Assembly: GCA_965208325.1 (NCBI GenBank) | Contig: OZ242326.1 | Location: 854,725 to 918,724 of the forward strand | DNA from: Candidatus Poribacteria bacterium | GTDB taxonomy: Bacteria > Poribacteria > WGA-4E > PCPOR2b | DNA length: 64,000 bases | Reading direction: 5' to 3' | Shown: positions 2,570 to 33,100 of the stretch, in pieces | How positions within the stretch are numbered: the stretch's first letter is position 1 | Layout: every line of letters begins with the position of its first letter | Translations under genes and position numbers: made by a program | The notes under the pieces: generated by a model | The model's database searches: none | Seen by the model: the letters and a program-made list of their open reading frames with translations, nothing else | Told to the model about the DNA's origin: nothing

Positions 2570-4171
2570 ATGTGCTTCCAACGACCGGCTAGAAATTGTG
2601 CGCGTATTGAAGAGCGGAGTCGCCTGAGCTTGTATCCAACACTGGGGTACGTCCTTTCGGTAATTTTGATTGGGGTGGTGCTCACTACGAATTTAGCTTT
2701 TGCGGGCACAGCCGGGACGGAGCATTTAGTGAAACGACACTTCGAGCAGGGGGTGCATTTTGTTGAAATTGGCGTATACGACCAAGCCCTCGCTGAGATT
2801 CAAAAAGTGTTAGAACTCCAGCCGAATAATAGCGAGGCGTATTGCTTTCTTGGCGACGTGTATCAATACCAGGAGATGTATAATGAGGCGGCGGACGCCT
2901 ATCAACGAGCGCTTACACTCAATGGATCAATTCAAACACGTGGGATAGCGAACTGGTGTCTGGGCATCATCTACAATAAACAAGGTAAATTCTTAGAGGC
3001 GGAGAAATACGGAAAGGAAGCCGTTTCATTGCTTCCAGACGCGGCTTGGACTCACTATAGATTGGGCAACATCTACACACAACGCGGGAAATTAGACGAA
3101 GCAACTGGCGCGTATCAAAAAGCGATTCAATTGAATCCGGAACTAGCCGAAGCATATCGTGGACTTGGGCGTACTGCGCTCATGCAAGATGATCCAGAGA
3201 CCGCAATTCAATATTACCACAGCGCAGTTCAGCGAAACCCTTATGAGGAAAGTGCATACTACAATCTCGCCAAAGCGTACCGGCGCGCAAATCAATTTGA
3301 ACAGGCAAAATCCCAGATGGAGTTATTCAGGGAGGTTAAAGCGTACCAAGATGCAGTCCAGGACTATCGAAAGAAGCTGAAGAATAACCCTTCTAACGTC
3401 AGTTTGTACGCGGAATTGGCGAAGGTTCATCTCGAAATCAATAACATTGACGCAGCCATCCAAGAGTTTAATATCGTGACATCTTTGTCCCCTGCGCTTG
3501 CACTCGGACATTACAATCTTGGGGCGCTCTACATGCAAAAAGGCGAGGTACAGCCAGCAATTGAGGCATTTCAAAAAGCAATTGAATTGGACGAAAACGA
3601 CACCGAACCGTACATTCGTCTCGGATGGATTTTTGCCAGCCAGAAAAAGTTTGATCTCGCAAAGTTCTACCTTCAAGGTGCACTTGAACGCGATTCAAGG
3701 TTGTGGGAAGCTTATCAGGGTTTGGGTGAAATTTATGCTCAAGAAGGCGCCCTGAACGACGCGATCGCGGCGTTCAAGGCGTTGACAGAAATACAACCCA
3801 AGTCCGCCGCGGGCTGGCTGCGGCTAGGTACGATACAGGTTAAAGCCAAACAGTTCGACGAAGCTGTACATGCATTCCAAACGGCTATCCAAACGGATCC
3901 CGACCTGCCCGATTCCTATAATAATCTGGCATGGCTTTACGCCGACCGGAACATGAATCTAGCCCAAGCTGTGACATTAGCAGAGAAGGCGGTTGCATTG
4001 AATCCGTCAGGTTCAAATCTTGACACACTTTCCTATGCCCACTACAAAAACAGAAATTATCCAGAGGCAGAGCATATGATTCAGCGCGCCCTTGAAATCG
4101 AACCCAACAGGGATCAATACCTCAAACTCTTGAAAGAAATCCAAAACGCACGGAAGATTAACGGTAAATGA
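2570..4171 (+). CDS. TPR-repeat protein with N-terminal transmembrane anchor
   Basis: Hydrophobic segment 'LGYVLSVILIGVVLTTNLAFA' followed by more than 10 tandem 34-aa TPR-like units (W-LG-Y-A-F-P pattern: 'AYCFLGDVYQYQEMYNEAADAYQRAL', 'AYRGLGRTALMQDD...'). Confidence 0.7.
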   Translation: MCFQRPARNCARIEERSRLSLYPTLGYVLSVILIGVVLTTNLAFAGTAGTEHLVKRHFEQGVHFVEIGVYDQALAEIQKVLELQPNNSEAYCFLGDVYQYQEMYNEAADAYQRALTLNGSIQTRGIANWCLGIIYNKQGKFLEAEKYGKEAVSLLPDAAWTHYRLGNIYTQRGKLDEATGAYQKAIQLNPELAEAYRGLGRTALMQDDPETAIQYYHSAVQRNPYEESAYYNLAKAYRRANQFEQAKSQMELFREVKAYQDAVQDYRKKLKNNPSNVSLYAELAKVHLEINNIDAAIQEFNIVTSLSPALALGHYNLGALYMQKGEVQPAIEAFQKAIELDENDTEPYIRLGWIFASQKKFDLAKFYLQGALERDSRLWEAYQGLGEIYAQEGALNDAIAAFKALTEIQPKSAAGWLRLGTIQVKAKQFDEAVHAFQTAIQTDPDLPDSYNNLAWLYADRNMNLAQAVTLAEKAVALNPSGSNLDTLSYAHYKNRNYPEAEHMIQRALEIEPNRDQYLKLLKEIQNARKINGK

Positions 4172-4212: not shown

Positions 4213-6033
4213 TTGCAAACGCAGAAGGTTTGGGGACCGCTCCAGTCGAGTAAATTGGATTCAACAGCCAATTCTAAATGGCATTTGCCGTTCCAGGCGA
4301 TGGTTTCAATAAGTTCTGCTACATTGCTCAAGCCACCGAAACAAACCTCCAATTCACTGCATGCGTTTACCTTCATACTCGTATGTACGCTCTTTTGTCC
4401 TTCCTCTGCAAACACCCTCCAATCGAACGCTGGCTTCATCAATATAGCGGCCGACGCTGGGATTGATTTTGAACACACCGACGGCAAGAGTGAATTGCGT
4501 CTCTTCAATGAATACCTCGGTGCGGGCGGCGGTTTTTTCGACTATAACAATGACGGACATCTAGACATCTATCTCGTAAACGGCGCGCTTCAAACCGATC
4601 AGCGCAAACACATCCAATCGTCCATTCCGACAAACGCCCTGTATCGAAATAACGGAGATGGTACGTTTTCTAATGTTACAAGCTCAACTGGTGCAGGCGA
4701 CACCGGCTACGGCGTTGGCGCCGCAGTCGGCGATTATGACAACGACGGAGATTTGGATTTATATGTGACAAATTTTGGTGCCAATGCCTTCTATCGCAAT
4801 AATGGAGACGCGACCTTCGAAGAGGTGTCATTAAACGCCGGCGTTGCAAATTTACAATGGGGGACTAGCTGTGCGTTTGCCGATGTGAACAATGACGGCT
4901 ACCTCGACTTATACATTTCGAACTATGCGGATTACGCCATTGAACGGGACAAACGGTGCGTTATCAGAGGAATATGGCAATACTGCGGTCCAGGTACGTA
5001 TCCGCCTGATACAGATGTCCTTTATCATAACAACGGTGACGGCACATTCTCTGATGTGTCGAACACAAGCGGGGTTTTGAACGTGCCAGCCTATCACGGC
5101 TTAGGCGTGGTTTTCGGCGATTACGACAACGACGGTGATCAAGATGTCTATGTGGCAAATGATCAGGATGCAAATTTCTTATTTCGGAATCGCGGAGATG
5201 GGGCATTTGACGAGGTGGCGTTAGCGACAGGCGTTGGGTATAGCGACATGGGTAAGGAGGAGGCGGGGATGGGAACCGCTTTTGGCGATTACGACAATGA
5301 CGGCATGCTGGATTTGACGGTGAGCAATTTTCAAAATGAAACCAATACGTTGTATCACAACCGAAGCGGAGAATATTTTACCGATGAGACGATAACATCC
5401 GGAATTGGCGAGGTGACGTATAGCTACCTAGGGTGGGGAATTTCTTTTTTCGACTATGACAACGACGGCTACAAGGACGTATTTGTCGCAAATGGGCACG
5501 TTTTGGATAACATCGCTGAAATCGATCGTTCCACAACGTACCCCCAGCAGAATTTGCTGTTTAGGAACCTTGGGGACGGCACATTTGCCGATGTTACAAA
5601 TCAGGCGGGGTCAGGGTTGGAGCTCCGCAAGGTCAGCCGCGGCGCCGCCTTTGGAGATTACGATAACGACGGCGACATTGATATCTTGATTACAAATTGG
5701 AATCAAACAGCCGATCTGTTACGAAATGACGGAGGAAATCAGAATAACTGGGTGCAGTTCAGAGCGGTTGGCGTAAATAGCAATCGATCGGCAATTGGGG
5801 CGCGAATCAAAGTTACTTCGGGAAAATTGTCGCAATACGCCGAGGTCCAGTGCGGCGGCAGTTACCTGTCGTTCAACGACCTGCGCGTCCATTTCGGACT
5901 TGGTAAGTCAGAAAAAGTAGATTTCATTGAAATTCGATGGCCAAGCGGGAAAATTGATAGCGCAGATAATCTGCCCGTAAATCAACTGTATGTCGTAACC
6001 GAAGGGCATGGACTATCGCAATATCAAGACTGA
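4213..6033 (+). CDS. FG-GAP repeat / ASPIC-UnbV (CRTAC1-like) secreted protein
   Basis: Six or more 'FGDYDNDGxLDLYV' FG-GAP/calcium-binding repeats plus a C-terminal UnbV_ASPIC motif 'QCGGSYLSFNDLRVHFGLG'. The start codon is uncertain; the N-terminal region is hydrophobic. Confidence 0.7.
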   Translation: MQTQKVWGPLQSSKLDSTANSKWHLPFQAMVSISSATLLKPPKQTSNSLHAFTFILVCTLFCPSSANTLQSNAGFINIAADAGIDFEHTDGKSELRLFNEYLGAGGGFFDYNNDGHLDIYLVNGALQTDQRKHIQSSIPTNALYRNNGDGTFSNVTSSTGAGDTGYGVGAAVGDYDNDGDLDLYVTNFGANAFYRNNGDATFEEVSLNAGVANLQWGTSCAFADVNNDGYLDLYISNYADYAIERDKRCVIRGIWQYCGPGTYPPDTDVLYHNNGDGTFSDVSNTSGVLNVPAYHGLGVVFGDYDNDGDQDVYVANDQDANFLFRNRGDGAFDEVALATGVGYSDMGKEEAGMGTAFGDYDNDGMLDLTVSNFQNETNTLYHNRSGEYFTDETITSGIGEVTYSYLGWGISFFDYDNDGYKDVFVANGHVLDNIAEIDRSTTYPQQNLLFRNLGDGTFADVTNQAGSGLELRKVSRGAAFGDYDNDGDIDILITNWNQTADLLRNDGGNQNNWVQFRAVGVNSNRSAIGARIKVTSGKLSQYAEVQCGGSYLSFNDLRVHFGLGKSEKVDFIEIRWPSGKIDSADNLPVNQLYVVTEGHGLSQYQD

Positions 6034-6079
6034 ACTCTGTATATTTATTGTAGCCGGGAACTTCACCGTTCCGATTCGG

Positions 6080-6955
6080 TTATCGCGGCCAACGGTAAGG
6101 TTGAGCCCCCTGTGAAAACTTGAGTGCAAACTCCCACCTTTGGCACCACGTCGTGTAATCGGTCTGTAGCGAATCCGGTCGTGACTGGCTTCGCATCAAG
6201 AATGCAGGATAATAGGGGCGCCCCGTCGGTTGATAAGCGTCGTGGTAGCGTAAGTCAAAACTCCATCGCACCGTGTCTGTTTTGTTCAATAGCGAGTGGT
6301 GCATCGTGTAGTTGTGGAATAGGAGTATACCGCCAGCCCGAACCGGAAGCGGTATTGGTTCTATTTGAGGGCGTTCTTCAAGCGGTATATCCAGTCCATG
6401 GGGCGAAAAAACGTGCTTCCGAAGCCCTTGTTTATGGCTACCGGGTACCACTTCAAGACAACCATTATCCAAGGTCACATCTACGATGGGTATCCAAATT
6501 GTTAGGATAAAAAACGGGTCGGTTTCAGGCCAACAGACACCCGCGTCCTGATGCCACGGGGTCGGCCCCTTAGCGATTTTGCCGTGCGGTAGTGTAGCTC
6601 GGATGTGTTGTATGGGGTTGCACAGAATCTCCGACCCAACGAAGGATTCCGCCAGATCCAAAATTTTGGGGTTTTTTAAGAAGTTGAAGGACGCCTCGCC
6701 GCGTGCTTGCATGATGTCCAAATTGTCAGCAATCTCTGGGGCTTCTTCAGCTAAGCAAACGAGTCGGCGCGTAAATGGTTCATTTTCGTGCAGCGAGCTA
6801 ACTCGTCCTTCGGCATAATACCGCCGCGCACGTTCATCAATGATAGCGGAATACTCCTCGATGACCGGCTGCAGGTCGTCCTCATCCAGCCAATCCTCTA
6901 GCAATAGAAATCCGTTTTCATAAAAAGACGAGACTTGCGATTCCGTTAAATGCAT
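6080..6955 (-). CDS. phytanoyl-CoA dioxygenase (PhyH) family Fe(II)/2-oxoglutarate oxygenase
   Basis: 291 aa. The N-terminus 'SQVSSFYENGFLLLEDWL' is typical of the PhyH family, with His/Asp motif 'WHQDAGVCWPETDP' and C-terminal 'GILLFHNYTMHHSLLN'. Confidence 0.65.
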   Translation of the reverse strand: MHLTESQVSSFYENGFLLLEDWLDEDDLQPVIEEYSAIIDERARRYYAEGRVSSLHENEPFTRRLVCLAEEAPEIADNLDIMQARGEASFNFLKNPKILDLAESFVGSEILCNPIQHIRATLPHGKIAKGPTPWHQDAGVCWPETDPFFILTIWIPIVDVTLDNGCLEVVPGSHKQGLRKHVFSPHGLDIPLEERPQIEPIPLPVRAGGILLFHNYTMHHSLLNKTDTVRWSFDLRYHDAYQPTGRPYYPAFLMRSQSRPDSLQTDYTTWCQRWEFALKFSQGAQPYRWPR

Positions 6956-27283: not shown

Positions 27284-28342
27284 ATGGCAAACCCATTAAA
27301 AGTTGGCATCATCGGCGTTGGCGGCATCGCCCGCACCCACGTACCGGGTTGGAACGCCTCGCCGCACGCCGAGTTGGTGGCTGGCTGTGATATCAGAGAC
27401 GATGTCGTCAAACACTGGGGCGAAGCAAACCAAATAAAAACACTGGCGACCAATCCGGAAGAACTCTTCAGCGATGCGGATATCGATATCATTGATGTGT
27501 GCACACCGAACATGTATCACGCGCCGCTGGCAGTTGCAGCGCTTGAATCGGGTAAACATGTCATCTGCGAAAAGCCATTGGCGCCGACGCCGCAAGACAT
27601 CTACAAAATGATCGAAGCCCGCAATCAGTCCGGAAAATTGCTCATGACGGCACAGCATTTCCGGTTTGAACCTAAATCGAAAGCCATGAAAGCCGAAATA
27701 GACAGGGGTGTGCTCGGCGACGTATACCATGCGCGCAGTTGGATGCTGCGCCGTAACGGGTTCTCACCAGGGCCGGGATTCGTCCTCAAGAAAAACAGCG
27801 GAGGGGGACCGTGCATCGACATCGGCGTTCATATTTTGGATTTAACCCTCTGGTTCATGGGCAATCCGCAGCCAGCCGCTGTGACGGGGGTAGCACGGGC
27901 TGAGCTCGCACATCGAAAGGGCGCTTTCTGCGCATGGGGCGGCGAGATTCCGGAAGCGTTCGATGTCGAAGATTTTGCGGCGGCGTTCGTGCGATTTGAG
28001 ACCGGCGCCACCCTAATCCTAGAGGTGAGTTGGCTGCTCCACCACGATATACGCGGCGAGGACATGCAGATGTGGCTTTACGGGACGGATGCCGGCGCGC
28101 ACTGGCCAAAATGCGAGTTTCTTGAGAGCAATGCTGCCACGAAGCAGCATTTCAATCGATCCTTACAACTTTTCCCGAATCTTTTGGAAGCGCATGCACA
28201 GGAGTGCGTCGAGTTTGCGCAGGCAATTGTTGACGGCGCGCCCTCACCCGTACCTGCCGAACAGTCGCTGCAGGTGATTTCCATTCTGGACGGCATCTAC
28301 AGGAGCCAAGAACAGGGCGGAGAAGTGCGAGTCAATGCGTAG
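27284..28342 (+). CDS. Gfo/Idh/MocA family oxidoreductase
   Basis: 'LKVGIIGVGGIARTHVPGW' Rossmann and 'EKPLAPTPQDIYKM'. The start is taken at 'MANPLKV'. Confidence 0.75.
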   Translation: MANPLKVGIIGVGGIARTHVPGWNASPHAELVAGCDIRDDVVKHWGEANQIKTLATNPEELFSDADIDIIDVCTPNMYHAPLAVAALESGKHVICEKPLAPTPQDIYKMIEARNQSGKLLMTAQHFRFEPKSKAMKAEIDRGVLGDVYHARSWMLRRNGFSPGPGFVLKKNSGGGPCIDIGVHILDLTLWFMGNPQPAAVTGVARAELAHRKGAFCAWGGEIPEAFDVEDFAAAFVRFETGATLILEVSWLLHHDIRGEDMQMWLYGTDAGAHWPKCEFLESNAATKQHFNRSLQLFPNLLEAHAQECVEFAQAIVDGAPSPVPAEQSLQVISILDGIYRSQEQGGEVRVNA

Positions 28343-28445
28343 TCTAGCAGGCACACTCAGTATGCCGTAGCATTATCCCGACCCGTCCATCAGCTTTCAA
28401 TGCAATATACGCAAACAACGGCACACGGAGTGTGCTTACTACTAT
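28341..28445. repeat. palindromic element, copy 1 (imperfect arms 'GCAGGCACACTCAGTATGCCGTA' / 'ACGGCACACGGAGTGTGCTTACTAC')
   Basis: Seen directly in the sequence. Same arm sequence as the 33001..33100 element. Sits right after the stop of the Gfo/Idh/MocA gene at 28342. Confidence 0.7.
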
Positions 28446-28559
28446 AGTCACTGCAACTAAAAATTACACATTACCTTTTCAATCCGATCAAAAAGAGGTG
28501 TAACCCCCCCTAACCCCCCTTTTCAGCTTACTATTGCCCACAAGTCCAGAAATTTGCAC

Positions 28560-28750
28560 GGTGCCACCTGTGGGAGGGAGATCCTTCTCCCGATTGTCGA
28601 GAATCAAGCGACCGAATAGGGAGCGCGATAGTTTTAAGTGTCTCTCCTACAGTGAGGACACTTTAGTCGGTTCATTGACAATAATCATTCCCCTCCTTAC
28701 TAAGGAGGATCAACTGACCGAATAAGGAAGGCGATAGGTTTTATAGTTCT
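28560..28750. repeat. modular intergenic repeat locus (two copies of 'TCAAsyGACCGAATArGGAGsGCGATAGkTTT' plus hairpins)
   Basis: Copies at 28604-28635 and 28710-28742. Hairpins 'GGGAGGGAGATCCTTCTCCC' and the perfect palindrome 'CCTCCTTACTAAGGAGG' at 28692-28708. A 'CACCTGTGGGAG' module and a 'CTCTCCTACAGTGAGGACA' module. Confidence 0.75.
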
Positions 28751-28878
28751 TCCTAGTTCTTATAGGTTGGGTTGAACGCTGTTTCTAGCACCCTCATTAA
28801 GATGTGGGTAATAGTAAGTCCTTTTCAGGGGGTATCTGAATGTGTGTAAATATGAATGTAAATGGCTATATTATGCGC

Positions 28879-30069
28879 TCAAACGACCTCATCCCTGCAC
28901 AACTCCGTTATCGCATCGTCATCTAAGCCTAGTATTTCCTTGAGAACTTCAGCCGTGTGCTGGCCCAGCGTGGGCGGCGGCAGACGCATCTCGGCAGGGG
29001 TCATCGACAGTTTGAACGGAGTTCCAGCGAGTTTCACGCTGCCCGCAGAGGGGTGGGGCATCTCGACAGTCATTTCCCGTGCGGCTGCCTGCGGATCGGC
29101 GAACACGGTGTCAAGTGTATTGACTGGTCCTGCGGGTACGTCAGCATCGGCGCAGAGTTGCAGCCATTCGGCAACAGTCCTCCGGCGGAACAAGTTCTCC
29201 AACATGGGTATCAATACGTCCCGGTGTGCGACGCGCTGCGGGTTGGACGCAAAACGCACATCCTTACCCAACGCACTCACACCCGCCGCTTCACAGAATC
29301 GCAGCCATTGTCCGTCGTTGCCGATGGCTAAGACTAAAAAATCGTCCGCCGCTTGAAACGCCTGATACGGAACGATGCTGGCGTGTGCGTTCCCCCACCG
29401 CAGCGGCACCTCGCCCGAACACAGATAATTGCTGCCGACGTTTGCCAACAGCGCAATCTGCGAATCGAACAAGGAAATATCAAGATGCTGTCCCTCACCG
29501 CTGCGTTCACGAGCGTACAGTGCGGCAAGTATCGCATTGCATGCGAACAGCGCAGCCGCAACATCAACAATGGCAACGCCTACCTTCATGGGCGCCCCGC
29601 CGCGCTCGCCGGTGATGGACATAAACCCGCCGCGTCCTTGAATCAGAGAATCGTATCCCGCTAACTCACGGTCAGGACCGGTGTGCCCAAAACCGCTAAT
29701 GGAGCAGTAAATTAATCGAGGATTAATATCCTTGAGTTCGGTGTACCCTAAACCGAGTTGGTCGGCGCCTCCGATTCGAAAGTTCTCGACCAACACATCG
29801 CTGTTGCGCGCTAAATCCTGCGCAATGGCGGCGCCTCGCCTGTCCTTGAGGTCGAGGGTGATGCTTTTCTTGTTGCGGTTGCAGCATAGGTAATATGCCG
29901 ACTCGCCCCCGACAAACGGCGGGCCCCATTGCCGTGTTTCGTCGCCGGCATCCGGACGCTCGACTTTGATTACCTCCGCGCCCAGATCGCCCAACATCAT
30001 GGCACAATAGGGACCGGCTAAATGCCGCGACAATTCCAGCACGCGCACGCCATCGAGCGCACCTGCCAT
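28879..30069 (-). CDS. CaiB/BaiF family (class III) CoA-transferase
   Basis: 'LDGVRVLELSRHLAGPYCAMMLGDLGAEVIKVERP', diagnostic of family III CoA-transferases. 396 aa. Its start overlaps the upstream stop as ATGA (30067-30071). Confidence 0.8.
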   Translation of the reverse strand: MAGALDGVRVLELSRHLAGPYCAMMLGDLGAEVIKVERPDAGDETRQWGPPFVGGESAYYLCCNRNKKSITLDLKDRRGAAIAQDLARNSDVLVENFRIGGADQLGLGYTELKDINPRLIYCSISGFGHTGPDRELAGYDSLIQGRGGFMSITGERGGAPMKVGVAIVDVAAALFACNAILAALYARERSGEGQHLDISLFDSQIALLANVGSNYLCSGEVPLRWGNAHASIVPYQAFQAADDFLVLAIGNDGQWLRFCEAAGVSALGKDVRFASNPQRVAHRDVLIPMLENLFRRRTVAEWLQLCADADVPAGPVNTLDTVFADPQAAAREMTVEMPHPSAGSVKLAGTPFKLSMTPAEMRLPPPTLGQHTAEVLKEILGLDDDAITELCRDEVV

Positions 30070-31283
30070 TACGTATCCTCCGCAAACGGATACGGCGGCA
30101 GTATTTGCGTTAAACGCTTGTCAGTTCGGTATCCGAGCGCATATTCTGCCTGCATCAATTGGTGAATTTCCTGCGTTCCCTCGTAGATTAACGCCCCACG
30201 GGAGTTTCGCAAGTAGCGTTCGACCGGGTACTCGTCGCTATAACCGTTGGCGCCATGGACTTGCACGGCGTCATCCGCAGCTCTGAAGGCGTTCTGACAA
30301 TTCACCCACTTCGCCAGGCTCGCCTCGCGTGTACAGCGCGCCCCTCGATTCATCATCCAGCCAATCTGATAGTATAGCAGCCGCCCGGTGTCCCTCCCCG
30401 CGACCATGCGGGCAATTTTTTGCTGAACGAGTTGGTGTTTTCCAATCGGACGCCCAAACGTCTCGCGCGCCTTAACGTAGGATGTACTCGCCTCAAGGCA
30501 CGCCTCTATCAAACCGACCGCCCCGGCGGCAACTGTGTAGCGACCGCTGTCCAATGCACTCATGGCGATCTTGAATCCTTCGCCCTCTTCACCGACACGA
30601 TTCGCTGCCGGTACGTGCACCTCTCGCAGTACGATCCCACCGGTAGCGCCGATGCGTCCCCCCAGTTTGTGTTTGATGCTAGAGGTGCTGACACCCTCGA
30701 AGCTGCGTTCCACGATAAATGCCGAAATGCCGCGGTACTTGGTGCTAGGGTCGGTGTAGGCAAAAACCAAATATTGGTCGGCGATGTCGGCGAAACCGAT
30801 CCACGTTTTCTCGCCGTCGAGAATATAACTGCCGCCCTCCCGCCGGGCGGTGGTGCGAATATTCGAGACATCGCTTCCCGCATGCGGTTCAGTCAGCGCA
30901 AACACCCCCAACTTCTCGCCGCGCGCCTGCGGCGCAAGATAATCGGCCTTTTGCGCGCCGCTTCCCCACCGAAACAACGTCAACGAGTTGAGGCCTAGAT
31001 GCACGGAAACCAACACGCGAAAAGCGCTGTCCGCACGCTCCAACTCTTCACAGACGATGCCGAGGCTTAGATAGTCGCGCCCCAATCCGCCGTGGCATCG
31101 GGGAATGCAAACGCCGAACAGCCCCTCTGCCGCCATCTTCGGCAAAATTTCCCGCGGAAATTTCTGTGCGCGGTCCCATTCGCGGACATACGGCAAAATC
31201 TCGCGTGCACAAAACTCGCGCGCCGCATTGCGGATGGCGTCGTGCTCCGATGTCAATGTGAAGTCCAAAATTTGAATCTCCAT
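30069..31283 (-). CDS. acyl-CoA dehydrogenase
   Basis: ACAD fold motifs ('GLFGVCIPRCHGG', 'FALTEPHAGSD', C-terminal 'YEGTQEIHQLMQAEYALG'). 404 aa. Translationally coupled to the CoA-transferase. Confidence 0.8.
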   Translation of the reverse strand: MEIQILDFTLTSEHDAIRNAAREFCAREILPYVREWDRAQKFPREILPKMAAEGLFGVCIPRCHGGLGRDYLSLGIVCEELERADSAFRVLVSVHLGLNSLTLFRWGSGAQKADYLAPQARGEKLGVFALTEPHAGSDVSNIRTTARREGGSYILDGEKTWIGFADIADQYLVFAYTDPSTKYRGISAFIVERSFEGVSTSSIKHKLGGRIGATGGIVLREVHVPAANRVGEEGEGFKIAMSALDSGRYTVAAGAVGLIEACLEASTSYVKARETFGRPIGKHQLVQQKIARMVAGRDTGRLLYYQIGWMMNRGARCTREASLAKWVNCQNAFRAADDAVQVHGANGYSDEYPVERYLRNSRGALIYEGTQEIHQLMQAEYALGYRTDKRLTQILPPYPFAEDT

Positions 31284-31694
31284 GCTTGGGAAGGGGTTGT
31301 CGGTATTGATTACAGTATATCAAATTCGAATTTTCTGATAAACAGAAAAAACAGACAATCCCTCTTGACAAAATCTGCAATTTTCGTATAATGAGAAACG
31401 GTCGTGTAGATTGTAGACACTTGCTAACGCCATGTTCTAGCCATTCAGCGGAGAAGAATGCGATTCGTTAAACCGAGTTTTTTCTTCAAAACTCGGTTTC
31501 TGTAATTTGATATCAATCGGTTTGGATTTCCAAGCCCTCATTGATAGAACCTGCCTATCCGCGGTAACAATACAATGTGTGAACCATCTCATTGACAAAT
31601 ACTAATTTTCGTAATTATTGCATAATCGAATTAATTTGAGCCAGAGATGTTTGATGTTCATGATTACCATTCACGGAAAGTTGCCGTAGCCGTA

Positions 31695-31850
31695 GGGGAT
31701 CAACCGAGTGAATAGCGAGGGATCAACCGACCGAATAGGGAGGGCGATAGTCTTACCTCAACACACCTCCTGTGGGAGCGTCCTCCCGGACGCGATAATC
31801 CCCGAATATTGAGGAAAGGATGCCTCTCCCACCGAGGACATTACGGCGAA
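31695..31850. repeat. modular intergenic repeat locus, second site (same family as 28560-28750)
   Basis: Full copy 'TCAACCGACCGAATAGGGAGGGCGATAGTCTT' at 31723-31754 preceded by a partial tandem copy at 31700-31720. 'CACCTCCTGTGGGAGCGTCCTCCCGGACGC' and 'CCTCTCCCACCGAGGACA' modules occur in a different order from site 1. Confidence 0.75.
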
Positions 31851-31979
31851 TATCAAAAATGTGCCGCCCTAAAAAACTAGCACCAAAGGTTTTGAAGACA
31901 TTTACAGGAATGTGGGAAGGCTGCCATTGAAATTCTTTAATCGCATGTACCCGCACATAGAGAAAAAGAGGATTAAACA

Positions 31980-32879
31980 ATGCGAGTTTTTGTTACGGGC
32001 GGCACCGGATATATCGGCAGCGCCGTTGTATCGGAACTTGTCAAGGGGTCTCACCAGGTAACCGGACTCGCCAGATCGGCGGACAAGGAGACCGAACTGG
32101 CGGATCTTGGAGTCGCACCGGTGCGAGGCGATTTGAGAGACGTTTACGGCTTCAGGGACCTCGCGGCGGAACACGACGCCATCATTCATATCGGCTTTGA
32201 ACGCAGCCCGGAAGGCTACGCCGCCGACCGCGCAGTCATGGAAGCGCTCCTCGCCGCCGCAAACGCCGCGTCCGGCGCCCGCCATGTAATCTATACCTCC
32301 GGTCTGTGGGTACTCGGCACCGTCAGCCAAGACCCCGTGGATGAAGATGCTACGACAGAACAGCCGGTTCCACTCGTCGCCTGGCGCCCGCCGCACGAAA
32401 GGCTGGTGTTGGACGCCGATTCGGAATCGGTGACTACATCAATTATCCGCCCGGGAATGGTTTATGGCGGAGACGGCGGAATCTTAGAGTCGTACTTCAT
32501 TTCGGCGGATAAGGGCGAGCCGGTTGTTCATGTTGGCGAGGGGGTTAACCGCTTCTGCTTTGTGCACCGCGAGGACCTGGCGGAGCTATACCGGCTCGTC
32601 GTAGAGAAACGGGCAGCCGGCATCTTCCACGGGATTGATGATGCATTTATCACAATTTCCGATGCGGCGCGCGCCGTTAGCCAAGCCGCAGGCAAAGGCA
32701 GCCCGGTACATAGCCAGCCGCTCGAAGACGCGCGGGATGAGATGGGATTGTTCGCCGATGCGCTCTGCACCGATCAGGCGGTGGTTGCGCGCCGTTCCCG
32801 TGAACTTGGTTGGCAGCCGCGTCATCCCCCGTTTCCCGAAAGCGCCCGCGCAGCCTATCGTGAGTGGAAAGAAAGTTAA
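31980..32879 (+). CDS. NAD-dependent epimerase/dehydratase family (atypical SDR / NmrA-like) protein
   Basis: 'MRVFVTGGTGYIGSAVVSEL' Rossmann. 299 aa. Confidence 0.65.
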   Translation: MRVFVTGGTGYIGSAVVSELVKGSHQVTGLARSADKETELADLGVAPVRGDLRDVYGFRDLAAEHDAIIHIGFERSPEGYAADRAVMEALLAAANAASGARHVIYTSGLWVLGTVSQDPVDEDATTEQPVPLVAWRPPHERLVLDADSESVTTSIIRPGMVYGGDGGILESYFISADKGEPVVHVGEGVNRFCFVHREDLAELYRLVVEKRAAGIFHGIDDAFITISDAARAVSQAAGKGSPVHSQPLEDARDEMGLFADALCTDQAVVARRSRELGWQPRHPPFPESARAAYREWKES

Positions 32880-33000: not shown

Positions 33001-33100
33001 GTAGTAGGCACACTCCGTGTGCCGTAAGTTACAAATGCTGCTTAACGGCCGGATGGCGGCATCGGGACGAGGTTTACGGCACACGGAGTGTGCCTACTAC
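33001..33100. repeat. palindromic element, copy 2: perfect 27-bp inverted repeat 'GTAGTAGGCACACTCCGTGTGCCGTAA' separated by 46 bp
   Basis: 33001-33027 is the exact reverse complement of 33074-33100. Located 120 bp downstream of the epimerase gene. Confidence 0.85.

Follow-up and report, generated by a model that had tools for sequence, protein, structure and literature searches.

ATCAA hairpin units flanking a CaiB-ACAD gene pair are probably local copies of a REP-like mosaic repeat family dispersed across Candidatus Poribacteria

The window analyzed here, a 64,000-nucleotide stretch of a Candidatus Poribacteria genome (contig OZ242326.1, positions 854,725 to 918,724 of the forward strand), contains a two-gene CaiB-ACAD operon whose flanking intergenic regions, 536 nt on the left and 696 nt on the right, carry copies of a short repeat that we term the ATCAA unit, together with a putative MITE (a miniature transposable element with inverted repeats) and hairpins resembling repetitive extragenic palindromic (REP) sequences. 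Four units were identified, all on the + strand. Unit 1 (28603-28631) reads ATCAA-GC-GA-CC-GAATA-GG-GA-GC followed by a GCGATAG tail; it was supported by a covariance model (48.8 bits) and by RNA folding, forms Watson-Crick pairs at 4/4 of its variable pairs, and occupies the loop of a CTGTGGGAGGGAGA / TCTCTCCTACAG hairpin within the MITE. Unit 2 (28709-28737; ATCAA-CT-GA-CC-GAATA-AG-GA-AG, then GCGATAG), also within the MITE, scored 43.7 bits, and one C·A mispair flagged by the covariance model marks it as a slightly decayed copy. On the right side, unit 3 (31699-31720; ATCAA-CC-GA-GT-GAATA-GC-GA-GG, with one T·G pair) is preceded by GTAGGGG and abuts unit 4 (31722-31750; ATCAA-CC-GA-CC-GAATA-GG-GA-GG, then GCGATAG) head to tail with a 23-nt period; unit 3 has no GCGATAG tail because unit 4 directly adjoins it. 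Unit 4 obtained the top score in the window (51.4 bits).

With its filters disabled, the covariance model, for which 123 distinct units were used, returned across all 64 kb no unit beyond these four copies, with the tail-less unit 3 scoring marginally. The 28-mer TCAASYGACCGAATARGGAGSGCGATAG, with at most one mismatch, was found on the + strand at 28604-28631, 28710-28737, and 31723-31750, where 100 shuffles gave an expectation of 0, and repeat finding in the window recovered the same families (D1 and D2). The 14-mer core alone, with three mismatches allowed, was not significant in the window, whereas the longer pattern was. The first-pass annotation of this DNA had described three full copies and one partial copy that occur nowhere else in the window. 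The three full copies and their confinement to these regions were confirmed, but the supposed partial copy (31699-31720) proved to have the whole 22-nt hairpin unit and to be short of the GCGATAG tail only. The annotation had also reported hairpin modules shared by the two sides in shuffled order, in agreement with our comparison. CTGTGGGAG is present at 28568 and 31770, and the module CTCTCCyACmG(TG)AGGACA lies at 28642, with a second copy at 31823 that carries a 2-nt deletion (an ungapped search recovers the left copy only). On the left, unit 1 sits inside a GTGGGAG...CTCCTAC hairpin, while on the right the units precede the GTGGGAGCG...CTCTCCCAC hairpin. The former is a REP-like hairpin with a GTGG head (28568-28652, +) whose arms, CTGTGGGAGGGAGA at 28568-28581 and TCTCTCCTACAG at 28641-28652, are paired in the minimum-free-energy RNA fold. 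The latter, also GTGG-headed (31770-31835, +), has the arms GTGGGAGCGTCCTCC (31772-31786) and GGATGCCTCTCCCAC (31818-31832) and is followed by CTCTCCCACCGAGGACA, the second module minus 2 nt. A degenerate REP head, ATAGGTTGGGTTGAACG (28762-28778, +), is a copy of GTAGGTTGGGT, the head that flanks poribacterial genes for REP-associated tyrosine transposases (RAYTs). For the clusters taken whole, fold z-scores were ordinary; only the left hairpin stood out, with z -2.4 on the + strand.

The basic unit spans 22-23 nt, or 22-29 nt with the tail, and follows the pattern (G)ATCAA-x1x2-GA-y1y2-GRATA-y2'y1'-GA-x2'x1'. When the variable positions were left free, 843 kb of fetched poribacterial loci yielded 309 exact units in 122 sequence variants. 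Their eight variable positions form four base pairs, each of which is Watson-Crick or G·T in 91-97% of the units and uses three or four pair types. Over 123 distinct variants, 87.8% of cells were paired, as compared with 60.5% after shuffling (0/500 shuffles reached 87.8%), and double-sided changes accounted for 167 cells. The covariation score was 0.858 against 0.34, and it fell to at most 0.2 when the partner was slid by 1-3 columns. On the ATCAA strand, G·T pairs outnumbered A·C pairs about fivefold (109 vs 21), which indicates that the hairpin, kept by compensatory changes, is selected on that strand only. The invariant GA dinucleotides face each other as tandem G·A/A·G. From this covariation, the unit is predicted to be a small one-strand hairpin of two 2-bp helices separated by tandem G·A/A·G and capped by a GRATA pentaloop, and the invariant flank ATC...GAT may provide a third helix. 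The RNA energy model folds a single unit at -8.9 kcal/mol (z -2.5) and adds the ATC/GAT outer helix by using the GCGATAG tail. The loop presumably fits the GNR(N)A pentaloop type of lambda boxB, which is a lead only. At gathering score, Rfam 15 gave no match in the window or in five unit-rich loci, permissive thresholds added only chance-level microRNA matches at E above 1, and the tRNA scan found nothing. Known categories of RNA or repeat were dropped on their own features: a CsrA-type GGA hairpin, as GGA is not conserved across variants; a K-turn, as there is no 3-nt bulge; CRISPR, as there are no spacers; and a coding repeat, as a period of 23 nt is not divisible by 3.

The ATCAA unit is a dispersed intergenic repeat that is specific to Candidatus Poribacteria. 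When each species was represented by one genome, the query ATCAANNGACCGAATARGGARNGCGATAG matched at least 106 stretches in at least 13 assemblies, with many per chromosome; all were Candidatus Poribacteria among the matches listed, and 0 of the 106 listed loci overlap the window. Allowing one mismatch in the fetched loci gave 438 units in 303 clusters of 1-5 units each, and 271/303 clusters lie outside open reading frames (ORFs) of at least 100 aa. No unit was present in viral contigs or at 11 non-poribacterial RAYT loci. In a metagenome scan with the RAYT of locus L032, the relatives retrieved were all about 50% identical and came from soil-type samples; they carried no units and served as a negative control. 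The first-pass annotation had recognized a modular short interspersed bacterial repeat. Its judgment is upheld: the core is neither limited to this locus nor missing from the genome at large, and it recurs at many unrelated loci, almost always between genes and with varying module order.

Some units stand alone, while others form head-to-tail arrays that keep to one strand, have a 23-nt period, and usually end in GCGATAG; array neighbors differ in sequence. Precise junctions recur: in 33 cases a full unit directly adjoins its successor, and 40 half-units, cut at GRATA|G...ATCAA, end exactly at GRATA just before the next GATCAA. In intergenic regions between co-directional genes, 93 clusters are sense and 56 antisense (62% vs 38%), a weak bias, and clusters fall in convergent (40) and divergent (33) regions about as often as the abundance of these regions would predict. 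Where the flanking genes are co-directional, pairing reached 95% in sense units (G·T 27 vs A·C 4) and 93% in antisense units (19 vs 1). Several loci show further arrangements. Locus L019 (OZ240209.1, 4968001-4976000) contains a tandem repeat of about 118 nt, reiterated at least eight times, in which one ATCAA unit follows GTAGGTGCG each time, and L103 (OZ246960.1, 928001-936000) holds a long tandem array with 14 units in 8 kb. Inverted unit pairs about 20 nt apart (unit, tcttaaccggcagtgaaaa, reverse-complemented unit) were seen in L002 (OZ240245.1, e.g. 1680-1760), L006, and L037. The two arms of such pairs are different variants, and thus each arm would fold alone and not with its partner.

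The sequences surrounding the units point to the company that they keep. Apart from GCGATAGAGATCCC-type tails, the commonest words in the fetched loci (GTAGGTTGGGT...ACCCAAC, GTAGGGTG[GC]GC..., GTAGGAGCGATCTCC, and GTGGGAG) are GT[AG]G-headed palindromes, the form by which REPs are defined (Di Nocera 2013, PMC3733652; Nunvar 2010, PMC2817692). A GT[AG]G lies at most 25 nt upstream in 43% of clusters, vs 12.5% of random 25-mers, and in those clusters it is part of a REP that encloses the units; units commonly lie between the two arms of a GT[AG]G-headed REP, the unit-bearing loops belong to at least three unrelated REP classes, and a MITE carries units as well. The poribacterial RAYT genes match E. 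coli RayT in phmmer (2e-42, 2e-35) and the Pfam family Y1_Tnp; many of the homologs are named REP-associated tyrosine transposases, and they fall into two clades that share 47% identity. Every poribacterial RAYT locus examined has GTAGGT[TC]GGGT or GTAGGGTG[GC]GC REPs in its flanks. At L032 and L104 (RAYT gene at 4178-4750 in L104), the RAYT genes have antisense units upstream and a sense unit downstream (inverted flanks), while at L134/L135 units are nested in the downstream REP only. These arrangements suggest that the cognate RAYT repeats are the GTAG REPs and that the ATCAA unit is an accessory module in and around them. As side observations, the L032 RAYT gene (2576-3118, minus strand, in OZ245030.1 3184001-3192000) lies between direct repeats of about 45 nt with promoter-like TATGGCATAAT, and a second, weakly RayT-like ORF about 1.6 kb off (phmmer E 3e-5) makes tandem or decayed RAYT copies possible.

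Within the window, units 1 and 2 reside in a 292-bp element (28527-28818, +) with inverted ends CTTACTATTGCCCACA (28527-28542) and TGTGGGTAATAGTAAG (28803-28818). These terminal inverted repeats are 16 nt long and 15/16 complementary, and the same ends occur in L087 and L035. A 9-bp target-site duplication, CCTTTTCAG, stands at 28518-28526 on the left and at 28820-28828 on the right, the latter after one extra T at 28819, and the target is the loop of a CCCCC...GGGGG hairpin. The element is non-coding and has copies at non-homologous sites; the L087 copy is 77% identical with unrelated flanks, and blastn matches stop at the element ends. Other copies have duplications of their own (CTGATAAGG in L087; CTTTATAAG / CTTTATAAAG in L035). 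In form, the left element is an ordinary MITE. No full-length insertion sequence sharing the MITE ends was seen in the fetched loci, and no genome-wide search was aimed at one. The number of units per homologous MITE varies from two in the window to one in L087 and L004 and none in L035, and the L087 and L004 copies carry GGTTAGGGGAGG in place of the unit 2 block, which indicates that the unit is gained and lost as one block while the rest of the element stays conserved. Around and within the element, the target hairpin, CCCCC(C)...GGGGG, comprises 28494-28530 and 28820-28833; C-runs or G-runs likewise flank the MITE copies in L087, L004, L029, and L035, suggesting a preference for loops of CCCCC...GGGGG-type hairpins. 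The segment 28673-28712, inside the MITE, includes a CCTCC/GGAGG hairpin directly before unit 2, and its sequence, TCATTGACAATAATCATTCCCCTCCTTACTAAGGAGG, resembles the promoter-like CTCATTGACAAATACTAATT at 31587.

Orthologous loci were then compared. CaiB homologs of 93%, 88%, and 84% identity lie in the same order of FAA hydrolase, epimerase, ACAD, CaiB, GFO/IDH/MocA oxidoreductase, and S13 peptidase, with the CaiB-ACAD pair in place and the repeats absent: no unit was found at the orthologous regions of L127, L128, L129, or L130. The intergenic regions of the syntenic L127, L128, and L130 measure 49-255 nt (L127, CaiB 93%, 145 nt left and 244 nt right; L130, CaiB 84%, 49 nt left and 255 nt right). 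L129 (CaiB 88%) has longer ones (1177 nt left and 1032 nt right), each filled with over 25 REPs of the form GTAGTAGGCACAC...GTGTGCC in tandem; these GTAG-headed arrays have a period of about 37 nt and consist of the same REP as two doublets in the window. On the left, a block of 428 nt (28445-28872) is missing from the L127 orthologous site as a clean alignment gap; it comprises the MITE and a repeated element of about 117 nt into which the MITE inserted, with 28442-28708 also repeated in L004 and 28443-28507 in L087. On the right, relative to L130, the leader of the epimerase gene (31980-32879) contains an extra stretch of roughly 250 nt at 31632-31902 (+; boundaries approximate), which holds units 3 and 4 and the GTGGGAG hairpin. 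Upstream of this gene, a perfect sigma-70-type TTGACA-N16-TATAAT promoter (31365-31392, +) is conserved in all relatives. By these alignments, both window clusters are evidently recent, lineage-specific gains, the left one being MITE cargo, and the bracketing of the operon appears to reflect two permissive intergenic regions. In L131 (78% CaiB identity), a DDE_Tnp_1 (IS4/IS5-type) transposase gene (5129-6139) stands at the left-intergenic position between CaiB and the S13 peptidase, a further sign of insertion tolerance there.

Taken together, we consider it probable that the window repeats are local copies of a Poribacteria-wide, selfish, REP/BIME-like mosaic intergenic family (BIME, bacterial interspersed mosaic element), with the mode of propagation inferred. 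Pairing and G·T excess are equal in sense and antisense units, and thus the constraint belongs to the element and not to the neighbors' mRNAs; a constraint within the element itself points to selection at the propagation step. Most likely, single-stranded DNA would be processed by a RAYT-type HUH enzyme, with or inside GTAG REPs, and only copies whose top strand folds would propagate, so that the unit stays intact. Recombination among dispersed copies would add to the spread. Units would not be maintained by a function in neighboring genes' mRNAs, and any effect on the CaiB-ACAD operon or the epimerase leader would be incidental. There is precedent for such a mechanism, since TnpAREP processes folded single-stranded REP DNA, with the GTAG motif selecting the cleavage sites (Corneloup 2021, PMC8266576), and REPs in general display compensatory stem changes, G·T pairs, clusters, mosaic BIMEs, and inverted flanking of RAYT genes (PMC3733652, PMC2817692).

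A number of points weigh against this interpretation. The unit itself lacks a GT[AG]G head, and head-to-tail arrays are rare in described REP families (PMC3733652). At six of nine distinct RAYT loci (L120, L122, L123, L125, L132, and L133), the flanks are GTAGGT[TC]GGGT or GTAGGGTGGGC REPs without units, so the unit would not be a cognate RAYT substrate in the usual sense. The DNA energy model folds the unit poorly (-2.2, z 0.1), although DNA parameters handle tandem G·A poorly. The fetched loci were chosen for one strict variant, which biases the copy number and variant frequencies given above, and unit orientation rests on crude ORF calls. The 62% sense bias leaves room for some RNA-level role. 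Finally, unit strand was set against local GC skew and position for seven complete chromosomes, and skew in 8-kb pieces was incoherent.

Comparison with described repeat systems places the unit near REPs and BIMEs. REP/REPIN elements (REPIN, REP doublet forming a hairpin) and RAYT (TnpAREP) are reportedly treated by Bertels and Rainey (2011). Like them, the ATCAA unit is a short, high-copy, extragenic, clustered hairpin that shows compensatory stem changes and tolerates G·T; units adjoin RAYT genes in inverted orientation (L032, L104), and canonical GT[AG]G REPs and doublets occur in these genomes as well. It differs in its invariants (ATCAA, tandem GA/GA, GRATA loop, and GCGATAG tail, with no GT[AG]G head), in helices of only 2+2 bp, in its head-to-tail arrays of 23-nt period, and in usually lying inside the loop of a GTAG REP instead of being the REP, while most RAYT loci are without it. 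As in the BIMEs of E. coli, palindromic units and short motifs combine between genes in variable order and number: the units join GCGATAG/AGATCCC tails, GTAGGTTGGGT, GTAGGGTG[GC]G, and GTGGGAG hairpins in differing orders, and RAYT genes are often flanked by BIMEs (PMC2817692). However, BIMEs alternate REP orientation with regular spacing, whereas ATCAA units are tandem, in one orientation, and nested in other hairpins; orientation does not alternate, and inverted unit pairs occur in some loci only (e.g. L002). Lacking both the GT[AG]G head of REPs and the alternating orientation of BIMEs, the ATCAA unit is better classed as a variant REP/BIME-type repeat than as a member of a described family.

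Other systems share single traits with these repeats. The BOX elements of Streptococcus pneumoniae (boxA-boxB(n)-boxC) consist of a head, tandem internal units, and a tail, are dispersed between genes, and are predicted to fold. ATCAA arrays share this modular architecture of head, variable tandem units, and tail, yet BOX sequences are unrelated, have units of about 45-60 nt, and are not known to show such covariation or a RAYT link. The 28527-28818 element resembles MITEs such as Correia/NEMIS in its inverted ends, 9-bp duplication, lack of coding capacity, and copies at unrelated sites in several genomes, but its interior is a mosaic of REP-like hairpins with a variable number of ATCAA units. 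The subterminal hairpins of IS200/IS605 are likewise strand-specific, irregular, single-stranded DNA hairpins, recognized by a Y1 HUH enzyme and cleaved after fixed tetranucleotides; by contrast, the ATCAA unit has no transposase gene inside, is far smaller, and has no left-end/right-end pair.

Among the alternatives, we regard it as unlikely that the unit is primarily a structured RNA, acting in untranslated regions as a protein-binding or a stabilizing/terminating hairpin whose function drives or retains its spread. The tandem G·A and the GNR(N)A-like pentaloop would form its recognition surface. The tolerance of G·U but not of A·C pairs suits an RNA, as do the favorable RNA fold of the single unit with its ATC/GAT outer helix and the fit of the GRAUA loop to the GNR(N)A type, again by comparison with lambda boxB and as a lead only. 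The sense majority in co-directional regions also favors it, as does the location of units 3 and 4, which stand in the epimerase leader in sense orientation with the conserved promoter upstream of them. An action at the RNA level has been argued for many REPs by Di Nocera et al. (PMC3733652). Against such a role, however, the 38% of units that are antisense to both neighbors show the same pairing and G·T excess, 3' ends are not preferred over divergent promoter regions, the orthologous sites of close relatives are unit-free, no Rfam family matches, and half-units unable to fold are common.

A second alternative, which we consider distinctly unlikely, holds that the unit is an independent, very small mobile module: a site-specific single-strand nuclease other than that of the GTAG REPs would cut and join 5' of GATCAA and 3' of ATA/ATAG, with preferred insertion into hairpin loops and beside resident units. 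The precise 23-nt head-to-tail joins, the 40 half-units, the array ends in GCGATAG, the differences between units side by side in an array, and the presence of units in a MITE and in the loops of unrelated REP classes all favor such a module. Nevertheless, the analysis turned up neither a candidate enzyme nor a single unit cleanly inserted where a relative keeps the empty site intact (in the MITE comparisons, whole blocks are replaced), and recombination or slippage among dispersed repeats could yield the same junctions. A related proposal, which is possible but doubtful, is that the ATCAA hairpin is a new minimal structured module with its own recognition protein, a self-multiplying 23-nt element. 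The protein would be a site-specific single-strand nuclease or an RNA-binding protein reading the tandem G·A along with the GNR(N)A-like loop, and the module would insert into REP and MITE hairpin loops and build arrays of non-identical hairpins.

The two remaining explanations had been raised by the first-pass annotation and were contradicted by the relatives. That the copies are shared operator sites of a transcription factor controlling the CaiB-ACAD operon and its neighbors is hardly credible: although they lie in both flanking intergenic regions, one of which holds a divergent promoter region, there are hundreds of copies at unrelated loci, the orthologous regions have none while retaining the TTGACA-N16-TATAAT hexamers, the left copies sit between two convergent stop codons inside a MITE, and all copies are direct repeats on one strand with single-strand covariation. 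It is equally far-fetched that they are att-like or terminal-repeat scars of a mobilized CaiB-ACAD cassette, for although same-orientation direct repeats stand on both sides of the gene pair, the same six-gene synteny exists without repeats in relatives of 84-93% CaiB identity, the left copies came with a MITE having its own target duplication, and the distances are unequal (about 140 nt past the CaiB stop vs about 415 nt past the ACAD start).

For the annotation of the window, the regulatory and cassette readings of the CaiB-ACAD flanks are removed, and both intergenic regions are seen to have grown recently through mobile repeats. Our literature search found no paper on REP-type repeats in Poribacteria, and so far as the searchable literature shows, this is the first description of REP/RAYT-type repeats in this candidate phylum. 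The accessory module is unusual: its hairpin is very small, combines invariant non-Watson-Crick features with plentiful compensatory variation, and lies nested in other repeats. Such repeats complicate the assembly and binning of sponge-symbiont genomes while offering lineage markers, and they may provide a tractable substrate set for the diversification of RAYT-type enzymes and their repeats outside Proteobacteria. If the reading with a dedicated protein were true, the unit would be the smallest self-contained mobile or functional bacterial repeat unit described and a Poribacteria-specific marker.

Several additional features were observed in the window. At 28345-28441 and 33003-33099 lie two canonical REP doublets, GTAG-headed, inverted, and REPIN-like, whose spacers measure about 45-50 nt; they follow the pattern (G/C)TAG(T/C)AGGCACACTC(C/A)GT(G/A)TGCC ... 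GGCACACGGAGTGTGC(C/T)TACTAC; the former is also present at the L127 orthologous site. In the epimerase leader, and in the window only, the 31365-31392 promoter is followed by about 110 nt, the last part of which is a 12-bp hairpin (AAACCGAGTTTT/AAAACTCGGTTT, 31470-31499) plus a T-rich stretch. Copies of the hairpin are dispersed too, its 11-mer occurring 43 times in poribacterial loci, and the segment of about 110 nt could be a small RNA or another inserted module. A second promoter-like copy at 31589-31630 resembles the single L130 promoter. A weak RayT-like phmmer match at 27858-28151 (minus strand, E 8e-4) runs antisense inside the GFO/IDH/MocA gene and was treated as spurious. Lastly, GATC is mildly under-represented in the window (0.54).

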